From the NCBI GenBank assembly GCA_017654855.1, contig CM030338.1, forward strand, positions 434,001-498,000: a stretch of DNA of 64,000 nucleotides, in the 5' to 3' direction. The translations under genes and the position numbers were made by a program. This DNA comes from Podospora anserina. Lineage: Eukaryota. Below are positions 28,001 to 37,867 of this stretch, piece by piece (the stretch's first letter is position 1; every line of letters begins with the position of its first letter). The notes under the pieces were generated by a model that saw only the letters and a program-made list of their open reading frames with translations, made no database searches and had not been told where the DNA came from.

Positions 28001-28872
28001 GGCACTAGCAAGTTTAGCATTCATGTGGGAAACGGCTTTCACCGCTTTATGACTTCACACCTTTGGTCAAGATGCATCAACCACGCGTCCTTTTCATGCG
28101 TCAACCTACACACTTCAGTTGCATAACACCTACGGCCTGATGATCTCCGCTCTCTTTCTGGATGCCAAACTTCTAGGTTTATCACACCCTTGCTTCCCAG
28201 CATTGGAATGTCTTCCGTGTTGTATCCAACCTATCAAGTTAGCAGGGGCTCATGAAGACCATCGAGGCTTGACTATACCCAACTGCACACAGTGATTATA
28301 TTACTAGTCCCACCACTTACCTAATCTTTAATCCAAGTCAGAAAGCTCGCATTGTACTATCACTGCACAACATCATCGTGAATTAAACAGAACTGTACAC
28401 TAAGGGGAAAGAACCCTTTGTCCGAAAGAATACATTGTTAAGCCTCAATGTGTTGTGTTGAGCTGCTGAGGTGGCATAAAACTGGTCTACATATCAGGGA
28501 AACAAGACATGGATAAAAACGATACCATGCTTTCTCTCCTTACCTTATGTTGTCACAAGGAGGACTCAAAACCGGCCATTCATCAAGTAACCATTCAAGA
28601 GTTTGACTTCTTGTTTCTTGAGCTTGTCGTTGGGTATCATGAATGGCTGAGGCAAAGAAAAAGAGTTCAGTATAGTATTCCACGTGTGTCAATGTCTTCA
28701 AGGCAGCGCGAGTAGGCAGAGAAGGGCAACAGACTGAACAATGTGAGGAAGGTCGATGCTCCATTCTAGAAATCTCTATATAGACCTTTTGTTATAAGGG
28801 TTTCCGTCTCCAAGCACTCGCAATCGTGCCTGGTGACCATCTCTCCTCTCTCCTCCATGACATTCAGTTGTC

Positions 28873-30729
28873 ATGATGCCTCACTTTGGCTTGGTTCGTG
28901 TTGCTTCCCCTGGTGGATGGTCGCGGGAATTTATCTTTTGCGATTATTGTCTACGCCAGGAGCGAAATGAGGACACCACAGAGAGCTACTGCTCGCTTCA
29001 TCGACCTGGACGTGATCAAACACAAGCTACACCTTCTTTGAGAGAAGACCATGTCGAAAACGCCATCCAGACCACCCTGCTCGCTGCGTGTGAGGCTTCA
29101 GAAAGTGATTCCCACGCTGACAATGGGGAACCCTTGGTATTGTCAGCCGACTCGCCCCCGTCTCAACCATCTTCTTCTTCTGCCGAGAAGAAACACCAAA
29201 CCGACCGGCCCACAGAGTCCCGTTCATCATCTCCCCCAACAGACGATACTCCTGACCAAACTGAAGCATCACGGCAGTCCTCATCGCAGACAATCCCATC
29301 TACTGCCCAAACCAAGCAACCAGGTCGTAGAGGCCCTGGTCGTCGAGCCGATAACCTCCGGATCAACCTTCCCAACCCACCCCCGCTTCCAGAACCCGGA
29401 CAGCGTCCAAGCCGAGAGGTCCTCGCCCGACACGGCGTAATCGTCCCCCATATACCCCTCGTTCCAGCCCTGAGACCTTCCAAGCAACCTTCGGCGACCG
29501 CCACTGACCTGGCATGGTACAAAGCACATAGGCTGTGCACCAACTGCCACAAGGAGGTGGACGACCTCCACTTCTCCAAGTGTTCTGCCTGTCGGGCAGC
29601 CGGGCTGGAACGCGCTCGGAGATACCAAGCCAGGAAGAGGGAAGAGAAGGCGATGCAAATGAAAATGGCAAAGGAGAGCCAGGGGCGGGACGGAACCCAG
29701 TCGTCCGAGAGGCAGAGTGAACAGTCAAACGCCCGGACCTTGTGCTTGCCCAGGTTGACTACTACACCCCAACCAATCCACCTGATGCCAGACGCCAGCG
29801 CCAGAGACAGAATCTACATGACTTTTATCGACACGCTTCCAATCTACCCCCGGCGGCGCTCGATAGGTAGTGGTCAAAGGGCTGTGTTGGGCCCGAGTCG
29901 GGAACAAGACCTCTATCTCCACGCGTTGGACAGGCTGACTGACATACGCCTGTCCACAACTTTTTCCTCCCCCTCGTCATTACCAGAAGCGGCTCCCGGT
30001 CCACATCACACGTCGCCACCACCCCGTGAACGACCGCGCGGGTATTCCCCCCCGGACCCTCAAACCTCCAGGAATGAATCCAACTCTGCATGGCGCATGT
30101 CGTCAGGTTCCCTGCCCACACCTGCGCCGTCGTCCTCTCCTTTTGGACCTCAGTCCTCATCCAACGCCGCAGAACAACAGTCATCCCCTTTCAGACGCAG
30201 GGGTGAGGAAGGGGAATACCAACTCCACCCTTTACTGACAAATATCCCACCGGAGCAGTGGTCTTCGCTGCCATCATCATGGCGGCCGGAACCAGAGATG
30301 CCAGTGCGGGGTGGTTATCCATCTAACGCTGGCAACCGGGGGGTTGGTGTTGATCATGGGTGTTATAACAGACAGCAACGTGGCTTGCTGGGTGATGTGC
30401 GACAGGATTGTCCTTACCGGTATCATCACCCCAGCACTGCGGTCGCTGGAAGCGGTGAGAGACAATATGACGAAGGGTCTGGGGGCTGGGTTGACGGCCC
30501 GGTGGCAAAGAGGGTGGATATGAACGTTGTTGATCCGGCGTTGGTGAGTGTGCAGGAGGGTATGATGATGGGTGGGTTGGAGGAGGTGGACATTGAGGGG
30601 TTTGTTAGTTTGTCTGGAGCGGAGGAAGGGGTGGTGGAGAGGGTGGTAGGCGGGAGTCTGGGGAGGGTGAAGATCGAGAGGGTGGGCGGTCTTTTTGAGT
30701 TCGAGAAAGAGGGTTGCATACCTACATAG
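28873..30729 (+). CDS. Hypothetical largely disordered protein with central CxxC...CxxC zinc finger and basic coiled coil
   Basis: 618-aa ORF containing LCTNCHKEVDDLHFSKCSACRAAGLERARRYQARKR; Pro/Ser-rich. Confidence 0.7.
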   Translation: MMPHFGLVRVASPGGWSREFIFCDYCLRQERNEDTTESYCSLHRPGRDQTQATPSLREDHVENAIQTTLLAACEASESDSHADNGEPLVLSADSPPSQPSSSSAEKKHQTDRPTESRSSSPPTDDTPDQTEASRQSSSQTIPSTAQTKQPGRRGPGRRADNLRINLPNPPPLPEPGQRPSREVLARHGVIVPHIPLVPALRPSKQPSATATDLAWYKAHRLCTNCHKEVDDLHFSKCSACRAAGLERARRYQARKREEKAMQMKMAKESQGRDGTQSSERQSEQSNARTLCLPRLTTTPQPIHLMPDASARDRIYMTFIDTLPIYPRRRSIGSGQRAVLGPSREQDLYLHALDRLTDIRLSTTFSSPSSLPEAAPGPHHTSPPPRERPRGYSPPDPQTSRNESNSAWRMSSGSLPTPAPSSSPFGPQSSSNAAEQQSSPFRRRGEEGEYQLHPLLTNIPPEQWSSLPSSWRPEPEMPVRGGYPSNAGNRGVGVDHGCYNRQQRGLLGDVRQDCPYRYHHPSTAVAGSGERQYDEGSGGWVDGPVAKRVDMNVVDPALVSVQEGMMMGGLEEVDIEGFVSLSGAEEGVVERVVGGSLGRVKIERVGGLFEFEKEGCIPT

Positions 30730-30859
30730 TCACACCTGACAATTCTTTTTGGCTCAGTCCGTATTGGTCTCACAAGGTGAGCAAAAGGTAAGCGCAGTGA
30801 GCATCACCCTGAGCTGAAGTGGGTTTAAGGACCGCTCGGCTATACTTACCGCAACCAAA

Positions 30860-31140
30860 ACTAATATAACTTCCGTTTTCTCCTTACGCGTGCCAGTAGC
30901 CCATTATTAAGCCCACTAGAACCACCATTTATATTAAAATTACAACTTTATATATAAACAGACTTATCTATATTTCTAATAGAAAATGACATTTATAAAT
31001 TATATATTTATAAATATTAAGTTAAATAACTTTAATTACTATAATTTAAAGATTATGAAAAGATAGCGGGAATATATATACTAGATTACCTATCCGTTAC
31101 TCGAGGTTTAATTTTACCGTTCCTTTAGTAAAGGAATATA
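30860..31140. repeat. AT-rich, RIP-like degenerate repeat relic
   Basis: Abrupt drop in GC content with strong TpA enrichment, adjoining the LTR fragments. Confidence 0.6.
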
Positions 31141-31426
31141 TTGTCTCAATCACAACAGTCTAGATACCAACGATTGCGACTTGAATTGCATACTGCGGAA
31201 CTGTCTATCTACACCAGCCAGTTCCTCCGTATATATAGACCAGTGGATCACCATGGATCACGGTGCCAAGAATGATCCTGGATCACTCACGTCACCTTAG
31301 GACCACTTGGATCACCGCGCTCCTGGCGCTCCCCAGCGCTCCACTTCCTATTGGTTCCCGTAGCGATTGACTGGCACCTCCTGTGCCCCACATCTGTTCA
31401 TCTGGCCTGTTGGCTTAACTGTGACA
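31141..31426. mobile_element. Truncated solo LTR (same orientation as 37595-37867)
   Basis: 31141-31247 is nearly identical to 37695-37801 and the copy ends in GTGACA. Confidence 0.75.
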
Positions 31427-31530
31427 CTTTACTAGCGATCGCATCGGACTCTACCACACACTTCGGGACAGTCTTAAACTCGACATAAGTAATAGTAAGA
31501 TCAAGGAGCGCTATATATTAGAAGGCGAAC

Positions 31531-31933
31531 TGTCACAACCTTAACATCGGGAACGGTGGAGCAGTGCAAGGTCACCAGCCAATCAGAACAAGGTCGCGGC
31601 GGTCTGGGCGATCATGGGCAATAAGACTGGGAAGTGCAGTGATCACGGAAGTACAACCAATAAGGAACCAGAGAAGGATCATAGCGATCATTATAATCAT
31701 TGGGGAAGAGCGGAATGATCACCATGATCGGGAAAATCAAGGTCTATATATATGGAGGAACTGGCTGGTGTAGCTAGACAGTTCCGCAGTATGCAATTCA
31801 CAGTTGTATTCACGGCATCTTGTGTTTACATCGAGACATCTTGTTGTGCACTGTTTAGCTGCACCGAACCAATTGTCAGAAGTTACCTTCAACCCGTATC
31901 CCTTTCAGAGGTTCTGTACAGGGGTTCGTCACA
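31531..31933. mobile_element. Complete solo LTR of an LTR retrotransposon (inverted relative to the other two)
   Basis: TGTCAC...GTCACA termini with a perfect 5-bp TSD CGAAC (31526-31530 and 31934-31938). 31741-31933 is the reverse-complement homologue of 37595-37800. Confidence 0.9.
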
Positions 31934-32348
31934 CGAACTACTAGTATAGAAGGATAATTACGGAAGAATCGAGCCTTTCTATAAAATCCGCTAGTACGTA
32001 AAACGATTAGGGCGTTTTCTCGGCACTACTTATAATTTACCCGTCGACTTAAATAACTATCTTATAATTATATTTTATAATATTTTGCTCCTGGACGACA
32101 TCGTCTATATTAGAGAAAGCCATAATATAAGGCGGCGACTGCTTAAATCTGTAGTTCGCTATTCCCGGCCGTGCCGATATAGGATCCCGCGAAGTAGTCG
32201 CATTCTCGTCCTTGAATGCAGCCGAACGCCTCAGCGGAGCATTCGCTCGAGCCATTACACAGTGCTGGGAAGGATTTGTGCTGAAAGGCTGCGAGTATAG
32301 GGGTCGACGTATTAAACCCAAATGTAGGTCGCCTTCTGCAAATCCTGC

Positions 32349-34727
32349 TCAAAAAAGCTTATCATCCTCACTGAGGCACTCCGGCGGCAGCTCCTCCCCG
32401 TCTTCCGATCGCCCCAGCAACCCGAGCCGGCACGACGCCTTGGTGAGAACGGACCGCTCAAAATCAATGACCATGACTGGGTCGCTCGGCATATGACTCC
32501 ATACCAGATTCTCCCGCCGGACGTCGCCGTGTGCCACCCCTAGGGCATGGAGGCTCTGCAGGGATCGGATCACGTTTCTCCGTATCCCGACACTACTTGG
32601 TTGCTCCCGAGCTTCGCGTAGATCCCTGCCGGCCCACGAGAGGAGGAGGAAGTAAATGATGTGGACATCGGCCGCGTAGAAATAGCGCCGTCCCAGCTCC
32701 CGAAGGTCGATGGTGCCCAGAGAGACGGGGACGTAAAGGCCTTGGATCGGTTGAAGCTGCTCGTATATACGCGCTTCGTGCTCGATAAAGCGTACTGATG
32801 ACGACGTGGTCCCCTTGGCAGCCAACGTATAGCCGTGGCTGAGTAGTGTGATGCGAAATAGGGCTCCCCGAGCACCGTATCTCCCCAGGGGCATGATACC
32901 CTCGTCCAAGGTTGCGCAGAGCTGTTGGCGTAGCCGCTCTAGAAAGACGTGGATAGGTAGCGAGTGTGTCTTTTGGCAACGTAGGGATGGCGATAATGAG
33001 GACTTGATGTGTGATGATGACGACGACGACGATGATGATGATGATGATGATGATGACTGGACGTGTGGTGACGACTCGACATAGGGCCGGCGGTGGAGGG
33101 CTATGTTGGGACATGCGGGATCGAGAGCCCCCCCTCGGACAAGACCGAGTAAGCACGCATGTGTGCAGAACGGTGGTGTTTGTGGCTGGGAAGAATGTGT
33201 GCGGTTCTGTGTCTGCGTGCCACCAGGAGCAGTAGCCGCCGCCGCCGCTGTAGCTCCGGATGACTGCGTAGCGCTACGCTTCCTCTTCGACCCTCTTTGG
33301 GCGGCAGGAGGAGAGGGGTGGGAGCCAGGATTGGGGCCGGCATCGTCGTCGTCGGTCGGCGGAGGACCCTGCCCCCGGCCAAGGGATGGCGGCGGCTCAT
33401 CTGCTTGGGGACTCTTTTCCCTTCTCGGGTGGCGGAACGGGATGGGGGACCGGTCGTACCCGACGTAGGTCCGCGGTTCCCAGCAGCGCCCCGACGAAGG
33501 AGGCGTGCGAGGGGCCGGCGTGTTCCCCATCCGGGCCAAGATCTCGTCCCAGTCCTCATTCCAGGTCGAGGCACCCGATATGGCGCGGTCCCGCGCATCT
33601 TGACCCTGCGACCCGGGTCCGAGCAGCGCCATCACAGTGAAGGCCAGCAGCTGGCTGACGGCGGTGCAGTAGGGGATGAGTTCGGCTGGCTGGGCCTGGC
33701 ACTCGTGGGTGGGTTCGGCGACATGGTAGTACAGCGTGGATGGGTCGGCCCAGTCGATCTTGAGGAAGATCATGACCTCGCCTGTGGCAACAAGCCCCAT
33801 CTCGAGCCCAGCCTGGAGCATGTAATGGTAAGTCTGGGTGGCAGCTGCAGCTGAGAGCCTCCTGGCAAAGTAACGGAAGCGGTCGTCATCGTTGTTCGGG
33901 ATCTCGACGCAATTCACCACGTCCCGAACCACGTCCAGGTCTTCAATTCCTTCCCGCACATGCTGTGCCGTTAGCTTGTGGGGAGCCTTGTATTCCAGCA
34001 CGTATGCAAGCGTTCGGTCACCGTTCAAGGACCGGTACACACAGATCTGGTCAGGCCCGATGGAGATCTTATTAGTAGGTGGGACGTGTGGTGGCGGCGG
34101 CGGCGTCGATGGTGCGGCGCTTGTGGAAGGAGTTGTATCGCTATTGAGAATGTTCATGTGGTTCTCGAAGAAGATACCATCCCCCACGCCCAAAAGCGGT
34201 GGTATTGCGTCTGGGTGCTGTTGGGCATGCGTGAATTGATCGATGATGCATTGCACAGGAAGCTCGACAGCAGTGTGATGAAACCGCTCAAGGTCGCGCT
34301 CGCTACCAATTGGGGACCCAGCTGCCAGGCGGCTGCCAATACCCTGGACAAAATCACGCGATTCAAGTAATTGGAGTGTTTCGGGGAAGAAGGCGATAAC
34401 CTTGCCAAGCGCAGCCCTCTGTTCATCAAGGAAGCCATCCCACTTTGCAAGGCGGCGGGGGCAGTATTTTCCCGCCGGGTCTGTCCAGATTCCCTGGGTC
34501 GTGAACCATCGATCGGTCTGGACGCGGAATTTTGTCGACAGGTGGTCGTGGCAGAGCTGAAAGTACTCGATAAGAGTGGTCGGACGCCTTTGCTCCTGCA
34601 ACTCTACAACTTGTTGTGCTTGTTTATCGGCGCGTTGTTTCTCGGCGATGGTGTTCTGCTCCGCTTCTGCACGGAGACGCTCTGCTTCCTGGAGCTGTTT
34701 GACAAGTTCCTCATAGCTTGGATCCAT
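32349..34727 (-). CDS. Spok-family (spore killer-like) nuclease-kinase protein, 792 aa
   Basis: N-terminal coiled coil (ELVKQLQEAERLRAEAEQ...RRPTTLIEYFQLCH); PD-(D/E)xK nuclease PDQICVY...VLEYKAPHKL; QTYHYM...GEVMIFL; Cys cluster FCTHACLLGL...LDPACPNIALH; kinase GRYGARG, LAAKG, HGDVRRENL, IDFERS. This is the domain order described for SPOK proteins. Confidence 0.9.
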   Translation of the reverse strand: MDPSYEELVKQLQEAERLRAEAEQNTIAEKQRADKQAQQVVELQEQRRPTTLIEYFQLCHDHLSTKFRVQTDRWFTTQGIWTDPAGKYCPRRLAKWDGFLDEQRAALGKVIAFFPETLQLLESRDFVQGIGSRLAAGSPIGSERDLERFHHTAVELPVQCIIDQFTHAQQHPDAIPPLLGVGDGIFFENHMNILNSDTTPSTSAAPSTPPPPPHVPPTNKISIGPDQICVYRSLNGDRTLAYVLEYKAPHKLTAQHVREGIEDLDVVRDVVNCVEIPNNDDDRFRYFARRLSAAAATQTYHYMLQAGLEMGLVATGEVMIFLKIDWADPSTLYYHVAEPTHECQAQPAELIPYCTAVSQLLAFTVMALLGPGSQGQDARDRAISGASTWNEDWDEILARMGNTPAPRTPPSSGRCWEPRTYVGYDRSPIPFRHPRREKSPQADEPPPSLGRGQGPPPTDDDDAGPNPGSHPSPPAAQRGSKRKRSATQSSGATAAAAATAPGGTQTQNRTHSSQPQTPPFCTHACLLGLVRGGALDPACPNIALHRRPYVESSPHVQSSSSSSSSSSSSSSSHIKSSLSPSLRCQKTHSLPIHVFLERLRQQLCATLDEGIMPLGRYGARGALFRITLLSHGYTLAAKGTTSSSVRFIEHEARIYEQLQPIQGLYVPVSLGTIDLRELGRRYFYAADVHIIYFLLLSWAGRDLREAREQPSSVGIRRNVIRSLQSLHALGVAHGDVRRENLVWSHMPSDPVMVIDFERSVLTKASCRLGLLGRSEDGEELPPECLSEDDKLF
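33013..33056. repeat. (GAT/GAC)n trinucleotide microsatellite encoding poly-Ser within the Spok-like gene
   Basis: gatgatgacgacgacgacgatgatgat... seen directly and in frame on the minus strand. Confidence 0.9.
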
Positions 34728-35386
34728 CTTGGTGTTTTCTCGTGCTGTGTGGTGTTTGTGCTGTGTGGTGTTTCTTGTGTTGTGTAGTTGTTTTCTCGTA
34801 CGTTTGTTGCAACACACGTTATCGATAACGTCTACGCCATTGCCAAAGGCACGGACCCTTCATTGACTGTGCGAGTTATGATTGATTCACACGTCGCTGT
34901 CTCACTTCTATTGGCCATGCCATCTTTGCCCCCCCAAAACCAATGGCCTTCGTCTTGGCTGCGAACTGGAATCTCCATATCACTGAGGAAACCTCTAAGA
35001 AGTGGTCCGAATCAGTGCTCAAGCTCACGCCACAACCCCCCTCGCCTCCAAGCGGTTCAGCGCAGCGTCTTTGTAAGGAGCAGCGTAAACAATTTCAGCT
35101 GATCTACAGCTCCGCTGAGTGCCAGTCTTTGGGGTGATCTGGACGCGGCTCTTAAGCCTCGCTCGGTGCTGGCTGTTATGGAGCCGAGTCCCCCTTCGAC
35201 GTGCATTCCTGGCCGTTTTGCACCTGCATTAAGTCTCTTGCCTACACCACGCATAACCCCTCAGACACGCGGGTTCAGCACTTCTGCTGTGAGTGCTGCT
35301 TCCCATATTCTCGGAAGAAGTCGTCGATGGGCTTTGCCATGGCTTAAGCCTCTACCACATCTGCTGCTCAGGCTATTACCTCGTCT

Positions 35387-35686
35387 TTACGAGAACTCGT
35401 TGTCAGCCTCCTCGATCTGGTTCTTGATCTTGACCAGCAGCTCCGTCTTCCACTTGTCCAATCGGCTCATCTGATCGTAGGCATAGAGCTTATCCGTAAA
35501 CACCTCCTGGTTGCCCGCCTCCACAGCCTCGATCAAGTCTGACAAGAGCTGGAACTCGCGCTGACCGCCAAACGAGGGGTCCTTTTCCCTGTATCGCTCA
35601 ATTTTGCGGCAGGCGCTGTCCAGATCCTTGGTAGCCAAGATGCAAATTCCAGCCTTGAAGAAGTACTCCATAACCGAGTACTTCAC
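35387..35686 (-). pseudogene. sec17: C-terminal fragment (~100 aa) of alpha-SNAP
   Basis: KYSVMEYFFKAGICILA...DPSFGGQREFQLLSDL...DQMSRLDKWKTELLVKIKNQIEEADNEFS matches the Sec17 C-terminus. An in-frame TGA lies a few codons upstream and no N-terminal exons are recognisable. Confidence 0.85.
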
Positions 35687-36618
35687 CTCGGGATTGTTTA
35701 ATCAGCCTTGCGCGTTGGGGAATGAATGTGACTATTCGAAGTGGAAATAAGGTGGCGGAAGAGAAGTGGTCTAATATTGGTGGTAGCCGGTTTTCTGGAC
35801 TGTCTGATATGATAAGATCCCTCGCTACTACCCCCTCTCGAGCCGGAAAACGTAAAGGAGTCGATAGGGCTTAAAAGATGACTCTAAAGGCCGACAAACG
35901 CAAGTAGATGACCAGCCGGGCGCTCTCCGGAGTAGATGTAAAAACCTTATTAATAACGATCTGTTGTCCGAAACTGAAACCTAGACATTTCATTATAAAT
36001 TGCGGCTTTCATGATGTCCAGGACTCCACGGCAGAATCGAAAAGATCGGTCTCATACCTGACTCGGTTGTTGGTCAAGTCGGTTGATTTGTTTGCATGTA
36101 GTTTGATAAAGAGGATGGATTGACGCAAGAGTTGAGGGAGAGGGAGAAATGAGTTTAACTTAGTTGATCTACCTGTTCTTGCCTGGCTAACTGGGTATGT
36201 TAGCACATCTGATCCTGTCTATGGAAAGCAGCGCCTGAACTGGGACGGCAGTCATTAAATAGAAGCGCAATAAAAGCAGGAAGACATCGTCAGGTCTGCA
36301 GAAGTCACGATCAATTACCGTTCAGACTTAAAATGCTAAGGCGGCTCGGGCGGTTCATGTTATAGATGTCAAGTAGGTGGGGTTGATCAATCCGATCCAG
36401 GTAAAATGCCTCGTCAACTATTTCTCCAGAAAAAGTTGCGAGGAAATTTCGTCACGCCCAAAATACATAGCCCAAACCAAAAATTATCAGGCTGGAAATT
36501 ACCACACCTCGAGGACTCGTAGAGCCCACAATAAATATCTGGCTGGCGGAACCCAACCTCTTCACATGTATTTTACCCTTACATCTCCCCTCGCACAAGA
36601 CACACCACAACGCACACT

Positions 36619-37137
36619 ATGGACGGGCCGCTCAAGATGAACGGGGCCTTGCGGGCATTATCACTAAAGGCCTGCCGCGAGAGCGATAATTGGGATCCGG
36701 TAACAGAAGGGCACACCTTCTCATACCAAGCAAAGGGTACCAAGGCACACGAAGACCTCGTCCTTCAATTCCTCGAGGATTATGTATGTATATACTGGAT
36801 GTTACGAAATACTCTGGCTAACATATTCATTAAGCATGATGACATCCAGCACTGGGAGGCTGGCTGTGAGATCGTCAGGCGAGGACCGTTTATGTTAAAA
36901 GAAGGAGGTAGGACAAAAGCAAGCGGCATGATCATCCCTCTCTTGGAGGACGACAGCGAGCTTGGCGCAGCTGAGAAAACTCTTGTCAAACTCATCAAGC
37001 TCCCGCCGTCTAAATTCGAAAGCGATGTTTCTTTCGGGTGGCAAGGGTGTGTCTTTTTGTCCGGTCAAGATAATAGAATCAAGGTAGAGAAAGGTAGTAT
37101 AAAGTTTATCCTGTTGCACGCTGTGCCCAAGAAGTAG
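36619..37137 (+). CDS. Orphan hypothetical protein, 172 aa
   Basis: ATG-initiated ORF with balanced globular composition. No family recognised. Confidence 0.45.
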   Translation: MDGPLKMNGALRALSLKACRESDNWDPVTEGHTFSYQAKGTKAHEDLVLQFLEDYVCIYWMLRNTLANIFIKHDDIQHWEAGCEIVRRGPFMLKEGGRTKASGMIIPLLEDDSELGAAEKTLVKLIKLPPSKFESDVSFGWQGCVFLSGQDNRIKVEKGSIKFILLHAVPKK

Positions 37138-37594
37138 GATACTATGGAAAGCACCAACACTGGGGAAGGGCAGGCTGTGGGGGATATGGGCAAGTTGTAG
37201 ACGGTGGGGAAGGGGTTAGGGACCTATGAAGAAGTTCACACAGGATACAGGGTTTCCAGAAGAATTAAAATCAGTCCCAGGCAGATTGAGTACCTCGTCG
37301 GAGAACCACTGATGGCCATGATTATCAAGATCAACCTCCATAGACCCAGCCGCGCCCATCGACAAACTGAGCTGTCCGGGATATTCGAGCTCGTTTCCGG
37401 CCTCCCACAAATCCCTCGCTCTAGCCCCGTCACCTAGTTGCACCTCGCCTAGTCCCTGATAATGGATCCCCAGAAGTGGCCTCATGGCAGTGTTAGGTGG
37501 TTGGGTGCCTGTCGTCTGCCGATACCCATCCCCACCCCCTTCCACATACCGTTCCTTTAGTAAAGGAATATATATCAAAAAACAATAAGGGTAC

Positions 37595-37867
37595 TGTGAC
37601 GAACCCCTATCCAGAACCTCTGAAAGGGATACCGGTTGAAGGCTCTTCTGAACAATCCTGGTTCGGTATAGCTAAACAGTGTATAACAAATGGCTTGTCT
37701 CAATCACAACAGTCTAGATACCAACGATTGTTACTTATATTGCATACTGCGGAACTGTCTATCTACACCAGCCAGTTCCTCCGTATATATAGACCAGTGG
37801 ACCGTGGACCGTTGACTTACAGACGGTCCTCGGTCCACTCCTGATTGGCCGATACTGGACCGTGACA
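37595..37867. mobile_element. Solo LTR without matching TSD
   Basis: TGTGACGAACCCCT...CCGTGACA termini, homologous to the two LTRs at 31.1-31.9 kb. The flanks GGTAC and CTTGC differ. Confidence 0.8.

Follow-up and report, generated by a model that had tools for sequence, protein, structure and literature searches.

A complete and apparently fixed Spok-family gene of a divergent Sordariales branch in Podospora anserina

Among single-gene meiotic drivers, Spok genes are the ones understood best, and their fate after fixation is an open question. A stretch of 64,000 nucleotides from Podospora anserina (assembly GCA_017654855.1, contig CM030338.1, positions 434,001 to 498,000 of the forward strand), hereafter called the window, was analyzed for one gene of this family at positions 32349..34727 on the minus strand. 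On balance, this gene probably encodes a complete SPOK-family protein of an old, divergent Sordariales branch which acts as a self-neutralising toxin-antidote enzyme, is fixed in the species and was possibly a driver in the past. All isolates sampled seem to carry the gene, and current segregating drive looks unlikely. Taken as a whole, the finding is a well-supported annotation and not the discovery of new biology.

The open reading frame (ORF) was found to be a real, correctly recognized and intact gene. The coding sequence, delimited from the ORF list and from homology, is complete and intron-less with 792 codons plus the stop, and the stop-to-stop frame around it spans 836 codons. By our arithmetic about 3.5% of codons would be stops at the local base composition, so 792 open codons are far beyond chance. 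The guanine-plus-cytosine (GC) content of the ORF ranged from 0.537 to 0.690 in 300-bp windows, compared with about 0.52 in most 1-kb windows of the region. The frame was uninterrupted, and the contigs of four sequencing runs (described below) crossed it without a splice joint. Thus the unbroken, GC-rich 792-codon frame described in an initial annotation made from the sequence alone was confirmed on the minus strand from ATG to stop. One family copy was present inside the window.

The family membership was determined by protein searches. In a word-index search all 118 matches listed carried the Pfam label PF27653, with lengths from 438 to 1242 residues, and one of them was named "Meiotic driver SPOK2-like". 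These labels were precomputed on the homologues, and the window protein was assigned through its homology to them. When 1.84 billion cluster representatives were searched exhaustively with phmmer, there were 2239 matches at E ≤ 1e-3, 1454 at 1e-10 and 610 at 1e-30. Pfam applied to the protein itself gave a marginal kinase signal only (APH, 23.7 bits against a cut-off of 23.2), and the sequence search of solved structures gave only weak kinase matches with E values of 0.22 or worse. Judged by homology, motifs and predicted folds, the protein belongs to the SPOK family; the label shared by all 118 matches, the complete domain set and the intact catalytic residues agreed with the assignment made in the initial annotation.

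The protein was divided into an ordered series of domains and linkers, all encoded on the minus strand. An N-terminal coiled coil (residues 1-47, 34587..34727) with the heptad repeat AERLRAE was modelled by AlphaFold2 as a helix from residue 3 to 47 with a predicted local distance difference test score (pLDDT) of about 95. The copy number of this heptad differs between species, and the P. pseudocomata protein has 14 more residues, equal to two more heptads. The coiled coil is followed by a conserved domain of high pLDDT, named domain 1 (residues 48-193, 34149..34586), in which K87, W96, F99, L146, E155 and F187 were invariant across 60 sequences, and then by linker 1, a disordered Pro/Ser/Thr stretch (residues 194-223, 34059..34148). 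The putative PD-(D/E)XK nuclease-like domain (residues 224-400, 33528..34058), assigned from motifs and structural alignment with VIA-align, carries D226, E245, K247 and Q298-x3-Y302. Linker 2 (residues 401-517, 33177..33527) is rich in Pro, Ser, Gly and Ala and has the highest GC content of the gene, 0.66-0.69; a frameshift of the P. pseudocomata allele, described below, falls within it.

The C-terminal half begins with the Cys/His cluster C521-x3-C525-x13-C539-x5-H545 (33093..33176), modelled with a pLDDT of 91-97. It is separated from the kinase by a lineage-specific insert of low model confidence (residues 546-590, 32958..33092), which contains a tract of 15 serines at residues 558-572 encoded by the microsatellite (TCA)8(TCG)4(TCA)3 at 33012-33056. 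This serine tract was missing from the other members of the nine-protein clade described below in the alignment, and the run contigs broke at 33005-33063. The last domain is a predicted atypical small kinase (residues 591-765, 32433..32957) with K638, H733-G-D735, N740 and D755-F-E757.

The residue conservation was counted in a MAFFT alignment of 225 collected family proteins. In the nuclease-like domain D226 was kept in 221 proteins, E245 in 222, K247 in 223, Q298 in 222 and Y302 in 221. The three cysteines of the cluster were kept in 215-216 and H545 in 214. For the kinase the counts were 221 for K638, 211 for H733, 212 for D735, 210 for N740 and 212 for D755. The motifs named in the initial annotation, P225-D226...E245-Y246-K247, C521-x3-C525-x13-C539-x5-H545, H733-G-D735...N740 and D755-F-E757, therefore stood in near-invariant columns of these 225 proteins. 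The family form of the cluster is C-x3-C-x13-C-x5-H-x7-H, and the match was exact through C-x5-H; the last histidine was not at position +8. H555 is found at +10 in a non-conserved column, and the next family-conserved histidine is residue 588, past the lineage-specific insert.

AlphaFold2 models were built for the two halves, each from a 60-sequence alignment. The model of residues 1-400 reached a pLDDT of 87.8 and contained the long N-terminal helix, and that of residues 505-792 reached 82.8. The long Pro/Ser-rich linkers noted in the initial annotation were seen as low-confidence stretches, namely residues 194-223 with a pLDDT below 50 and blocks averaging 50-73 at about residues 545-584, which include the 15 serines; the tail was also low. 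The C-terminal model was matched by Foldseek to the pdb entries of CaMKII (7uis_A, E 1.4e-8, probability 1.00) and Rio2 (1zar, E 1.6e-7). For the N-terminal model (1-400) no Foldseek match was found at E ≤ 0.001. With VIA-align its best match was the nuclease part of the type IIG enzyme BpuSI (3s1s_A, Z 10.2, root-mean-square deviation 3.9, 159 aligned residues), followed by Vibrio vulnificus HsdR (3h1t_A, Z 7.6), DrdV (7lo5_A, Z 7.6) and EcoR124I HsdR (2w00_A, Z 6.6). Since Z values below 8 can reflect a common arrangement, only the BpuSI match clearly exceeds that level. Six of the top ten matches were restriction endonucleases by title, including two "restriction endonuclease-like" entries.

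The position of the protein within the family was revealed by two trees. In a FastTree analysis of all 225 rows the window protein fell into a nine-row clade with a support of 100 and a stem of 0.44. The same nine-row clade was recovered by IQ-TREE (LG+C20, quick search) from 44 chosen rows, with 100 in the Shimodaira-Hasegawa-like approximate likelihood ratio test (SH-aLRT) and a stem of 0.58. The row sister to the clade, P0034, was flagged as a long branch and was given no weight. Seven members of the clade are named, and all of them are Sordariales (Podospora, Cercophora, Lasiosphaeria and Lasiosphaeris). The nearest protein was QC762_0050250 of P. pseudocomata (P0002, 95%), with 460 of 495 residues identical in a block with a 14-residue gap and 157 of 162 in the kinase block. 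It was followed by a Logan protein (77%), proteins of Cercophora sp. (76%) and Lasiosphaeria hispida (74%), two proteins of Lasiosphaeris hirsuta (69% and 62%) and one of Podospora aff. communis (59%). The remaining family proteins were at most 44% identical to the window protein, and among the 1.84 billion representatives searched, which stand for clusters at 50% identity, only P0002 (95%) and P0009 (67%) exceeded 44%. Lasiosphaeris hirsuta holds two members of the clade, P0006 and P0007, and P0007 branches earliest, which points to an old duplication or transfer within the clade.

The comparison with SPOK1-4 had to be made by proxy, as neither these proteins nor any P. anserina or P. comata protein was among the matches with the queries P0001, P0068 and P0137. 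The proxy of Clade II was P0137, Polytolypa hystricis AJ80_09569, which was called close to SPOK1-4 by Vogan 2019. The window protein was 38.7% identical to it over 783 columns (query residues 6-735), and in the IQ-TREE analysis, in which SPOK1-4 themselves were not included, a 26-row group with P0137 was separate from the nine-row clade. With SPOK1-4 represented in this manner, the sequence comparison places the protein in an old, distinct and small Sordariales branch outside the Spok1-4 group, and the divergence suspected in the initial annotation was thus upheld by proxy. Vogan 2019 (PMC6660238) reported, in the part available, that Sordariales genomes hold no closely related homologues beyond the Spok genes, which agrees with the Podospora protein being a distant one.

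The allele of the sister species P. pseudocomata differed from the window gene in its reading frame. Its protein model tracked the window protein to about residue 480, then residues 491-510 of P0002 matched exactly another frame of the window at 33298, and the model was back in frame at the kinase (HGYTLAAKG) with the Cys cluster and the kinase N-lobe skipped. A frame switch without a gap is the pattern that a one-base insertion or deletion would produce, with an intron then introduced in the annotation. The frameshift could also be an assembly error; predicted introns in Spok homologues were reported usually to mask pseudogenising mutations and sometimes sequencing errors (PMC12693581). At the other end, the P. 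pseudocomata model continues past the window stop in another frame (32315-32353; P0002 residues 672-684), and this extension of 12 residues may be an annotation effect.

The spread of the gene was evaluated in 24 listed runs. A 2.9-kb stretch with the gene was present in 20 of them, all labelled as one organism and coming from nine studies, and at least 0.98 of the sampled words were found in 14 of the 24, six of these possibly being the source sample itself. The gene was present in all DNA-type runs listed for the organism. Four runs from four studies (X15, X16, X19 and X20) were guessed to be RNA and were compared without a DNA run beside them, no listed holder run being on record as RNA. 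The contigs of these four runs outlined a candidate transcript at 32040..34795 on the minus strand, with a 5' untranslated region of about 66 nt and a 3' untranslated region of 260-310 nt. In X15 and X16 the gene was covered by two joint-free pieces, from 32040-32091 to 33004 and from 33064 to 34793/34795, broken only at the serine microsatellite. X19 and X20 covered it in shorter pieces, and all four runs shared the piece from 32040-32091 to 33001-33004. No ATG occurred between 34795 and the start codon at 34728. These contigs were a weak hint at an unspliced transcript of the gene. The four runs had no contigs over 35882-37500, from which no inference was drawn.

These results were compatible with the following mechanism, modelled on the known members of the family. 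The nuclease-like domain would be the part that could kill, and its toxicity would be cancelled by the kinase domain carried on the same polypeptide. If there is any action, its only target would be a genome that lacks a functional copy, as in a deletion strain or in a species whose allele is broken. Since the gene would be in every nucleus of the species, no segregation distortion would be expected at present: the locus is an ordinary one with a single copy, all listed DNA-type runs carry it, and there would be no heterozygotes in which it could drive. The term "candidate meiotic driver" used in the initial annotation draws on family membership only and in our assessment overstates the evidence.

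A number of points weigh against a fixed and self-neutralising toxin-antidote enzyme. The toxin and antidote activities of the protein and its clade are deduced from conservation only, and intact motifs are no guarantee of activity, because yeast was unaffected by four of six Fusarium homologues, NECHADRAFT_82228 among them, despite conserved catalytic residues (PMC12693581). Fixation was concluded from runs that were found through holding the sequence, among which non-carrier isolates would not be listed. The P. pseudocomata orthologue is modelled off frame after about residue 480; a truncation tolerated in this way would suggest that the nuclease half has no strong toxicity of its own or is not expressed, given that the SPOK3 fragment 1-490 was toxic. 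The Cys/His cluster is damaged in two clade members, P0004, in which the first cysteine is gone, and P0006, which has an arginine at the histidine position. In all four runs guessed to be RNA (four studies), C was replaced by G at 33716, giving E338Q in the conserved "AEP" stretch of the nuclease-like domain, where P. pseudocomata keeps the glutamate as the window does; the second difference common to all four runs is at 32131, downstream of the stop. The exact window protein was not found in a collection of 15 billion proteins, and no P. anserina or P. comata protein was among the word-index matches. Identity with one of Pa_7_3950, Pa_4_4000 or Pa_1_5015, the Spok-like genes listed for P. anserina by Grognet 2014, is no more than probable.

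The other explanations differ in what they make of the intact residues and the broken allele. The gene could be an active driver, polymorphic in natural populations and, like Spok2, Spok3 and Spok4, lethal to spores that fail to inherit it. A full Spok architecture in which the nuclease and kinase residues are intact would suit this, as would a coiled-coil repeat whose length differs from species to species, as reported for Spok genes (PMC6660238), the fragments of transposable elements (TEs) near the gene, and the broken allele in the sister species, expected if drivers decay after fixation. Against it, at least 98% of the sampled words were found in 14 of the 24 runs listed; only one copy is present, it lies among ordinary genes, and Pfam matched neither a TE protein nor a Starship-type domain in the 28 scanned of the 30 long ORFs; the Psk killer types have been explained by combinations of Spok2, Spok3 and Spok4 (Vogan 2019, PMC6660238); and the three Spok-like genes of Grognet 2014 are found at identical loci in strains S and T (PMC4022471). 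Active drive was therefore judged highly improbable. A related view, also improbable though less so, is that of a still-armed toxin-antidote element, fixed and latent, which would kill non-inheriting spores in a cross with a partner lacking a working copy.

A host gene, in which the nuclease-kinase pair has been domesticated and kept in Sordariales for DNA metabolism, stress or defence against foreign DNA and is not selfish, would account for an ordinary genomic setting, for a clade whose seven named members among nine are all Sordariales with identities falling stepwise from 95 to 59%, and for catalytic residues retained in most of them; Vogan 2019 (PMC6660238) also considered clades represented by one orthologous copy to be probable non-drivers. 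It is harder to reconcile with the frameshifted P. pseudocomata allele and the damaged clusters of P0004 and P0006, with two divergent copies in Lasiosphaeris hirsuta, or with the small size of the branch, since an essential function would be expected to occur more widely than in P0002 and P0009, the only proteins above 44% identity among 1.84 billion. Domestication was regarded as unlikely. A decaying relic, whose ORF is still open after the loss of both activities and which is drifting to the pseudogene state reached in P. pseudocomata, was judged slightly less likely still. Besides that frameshifted allele, such decay would fit the amino-acid difference of about 3% from P. pseudocomata in the aligned domains, for species reported to be less than 2% divergent genome-wide (PMC10936905), E338Q in all four runs and the lineage-specific serine microsatellite inserted between the Cys cluster and the kinase. 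However, 792 codons are open with every family-invariant catalytic residue intact, both halves were modelled confidently, and the contigs of the four runs guessed to be RNA span the ORF except for the microsatellite repeat. A fixed toxin-antidote enzyme, possibly a former driver, is the reading that we prefer.

The surroundings of the gene had been described in the initial annotation as AT-rich debris of repeat-induced point mutation (RIP), which did not hold. GC content was below 0.42 in only three of 255 500-bp windows and the composite RIP index never exceeded 0.5, so a RIP reading was rejected by the indices computed over the whole 64 kb. The sole AT-rich patch near the gene lies at 30850..31149 (no strand assigned, GC 0.263), about 1.2 kb past the stop; the 500-bp window over it, 30751-31250, had a GC content of 0.352 and a composite RIP index of 0.44. 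Two inverted copies of a dispersed repeat of about 200 bp were detected at 31115-31247 and 31741-31935 (no strand assigned), 0.4-1.2 kb past the stop and around 499 bp, and a third copy was located at 37547-37801 by self-blastn and alignment. The arms of the inverted repeat near the gene are 60 nt long and 97% complementary. In the four runs the repeat occurred in abundant contigs, with a depth reaching about 2800 and a large variety of loose ends at 31930-31936; this very high depth and the many different flanks mark it as a dispersed, multi-copy element of the genome. One end of the repeat resembles the terminus of a long terminal repeat or of a miniature inverted-repeat transposable element.

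The neighbouring genes were ordinary ones. The last exon of an alpha-SNAP/Sec17 homologue was identified at 35387..35671 on the minus strand (Pfam SNAP, E 8.2e-34), and the other neighbours encode a Zn-cluster factor, a DUF2306 protein, an acyltransferase, F-box and F-box/WD40 proteins, a mitochondrial carrier and HSP20. A Pfam scan of 28 of the 30 ORFs with 220 residues or more in the window, and of three shorter ones, detected no domain of a transposase, a reverse transcriptase or a Starship. Of a setting like the Spok block with its Enterprise Starship or like the Spok2 locus with its large flanking TEs, only the 200-bp repeats near the gene were seen within the 64 kb, which leaves room for an element that is larger than the window. 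An open frame at 28861-30729 on the plus strand has 622 codons without a Pfam match and ends just before the AT-rich patch; its GC skew swings from -0.37 to +0.54 in 300-bp windows. Adjacent ORFs at 9635-11260 on the plus strand carry a glycosylphosphatidylinositol (GPI) inositol-deacylase winged-helix domain and ankyrin repeats, a pairing that occurs in some fungal proteins similar to nucleotide-binding domain and leucine-rich repeat receptors (NLRs). For the WD40 ORFs at 45-47 kb the idea of an NLR was rejected, as Pfam identified an F-box/WD40 protein.

At this locus an intact paralogue that seems to be fixed can be set beside the naturally broken allele of a sibling species, in an organism where Spok genetics works. 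If the protein still kills and protects, drivers could stay armed after fixation and contribute to species barriers. If neither activity exists despite perfect motifs, conserved catalytic residues would be poor predictors of drive, which matters for hundreds of homologues in plant pathogens. Of the possibilities still open, a latent, fixed toxin-antidote gene visible only against a null or broken allele is the most interesting. Such a gene would be a fifth functional spore killer of Podospora, from a much older branch of the family, and a ready-made hybrid-incompatibility factor between sibling species.

Several known systems can be compared with the window gene. Three further Spok-like genes of P. 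anserina, Pa_7_3950, Pa_4_4000 and Pa_1_5015, with TEs nearby, were listed by Grognet 2014 (PMC4022471), which in the part available gives neither sequence features nor a function for them. The window gene resembles them as a Spok relative at a fixed locus with TE fragments near (the repeats at 31115-31935 and 37547-37801), and it is probably one of the three, listed but never characterised. The remark in the initial annotation that the gene may be a distant homologue already noted in the literature fits this group of three, though a match to any single one was not obtained. In the literature searched, supplements excluded, these three names, or "Spok-like" together with Podospora, occurred only in Grognet 2014, and "Spok5" did not occur. 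A paper on four new genomes of the species complex touches on Spok only in passing in its available part (PMC10936905). The FuSpoks and NECHADRAFT_82228 belong to the same family and have the same conserved catalytic residues. The FuSpoks indicate that toxin-antidote proteins exist outside Podospora, two of six homologues being active in yeast (PMC12693581). Unlike the window gene, the FuSpoks fall in a large group away from the nine-protein clade and frequently occur in several copies, located on accessory chromosomes or Starships. The likeness to BpuSI, HsdR, DrdV and Rio2/CaMK-type kinases lies in the predicted fold of the two catalytic halves at 10-20% identity, and the Podospora protein is without the helicase, methylase and target-recognition parts of the restriction enzymes. 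The V. vulnificus HsdR (3h1t) was also the best HHpred match reported for SPOK3 (PMC6660238).

The closest comparison is with SPOK1-4, made through P0137 and the published description of SPOK3. In SPOK3, killing required K240 of the nuclease, resistance required both D667 of the kinase and the Cys cluster, and the toxic fragment 1-490 was rescued by the wild type (Vogan 2019, PMC6660238), while SPOK1 was reported to kill via DNA targeting (PMC9972908). The window protein differs from this group in a linker 2 of about 117 residues, against about 90 reported for SPOK3, and in the insert of about 45 residues with 15 serines after the Cys cluster, and its gene is a single copy in a window where neither a TE protein nor a Starship-type domain was detected. 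It shares with SPOK1-4 the coiled coil with a variable N-terminal repeat, domain 1, the nuclease-like domain with QxxxY, the Cys cluster, the kinase and the absence of an intron, and K240 and D667 of SPOK3 correspond to its catalytic residues.

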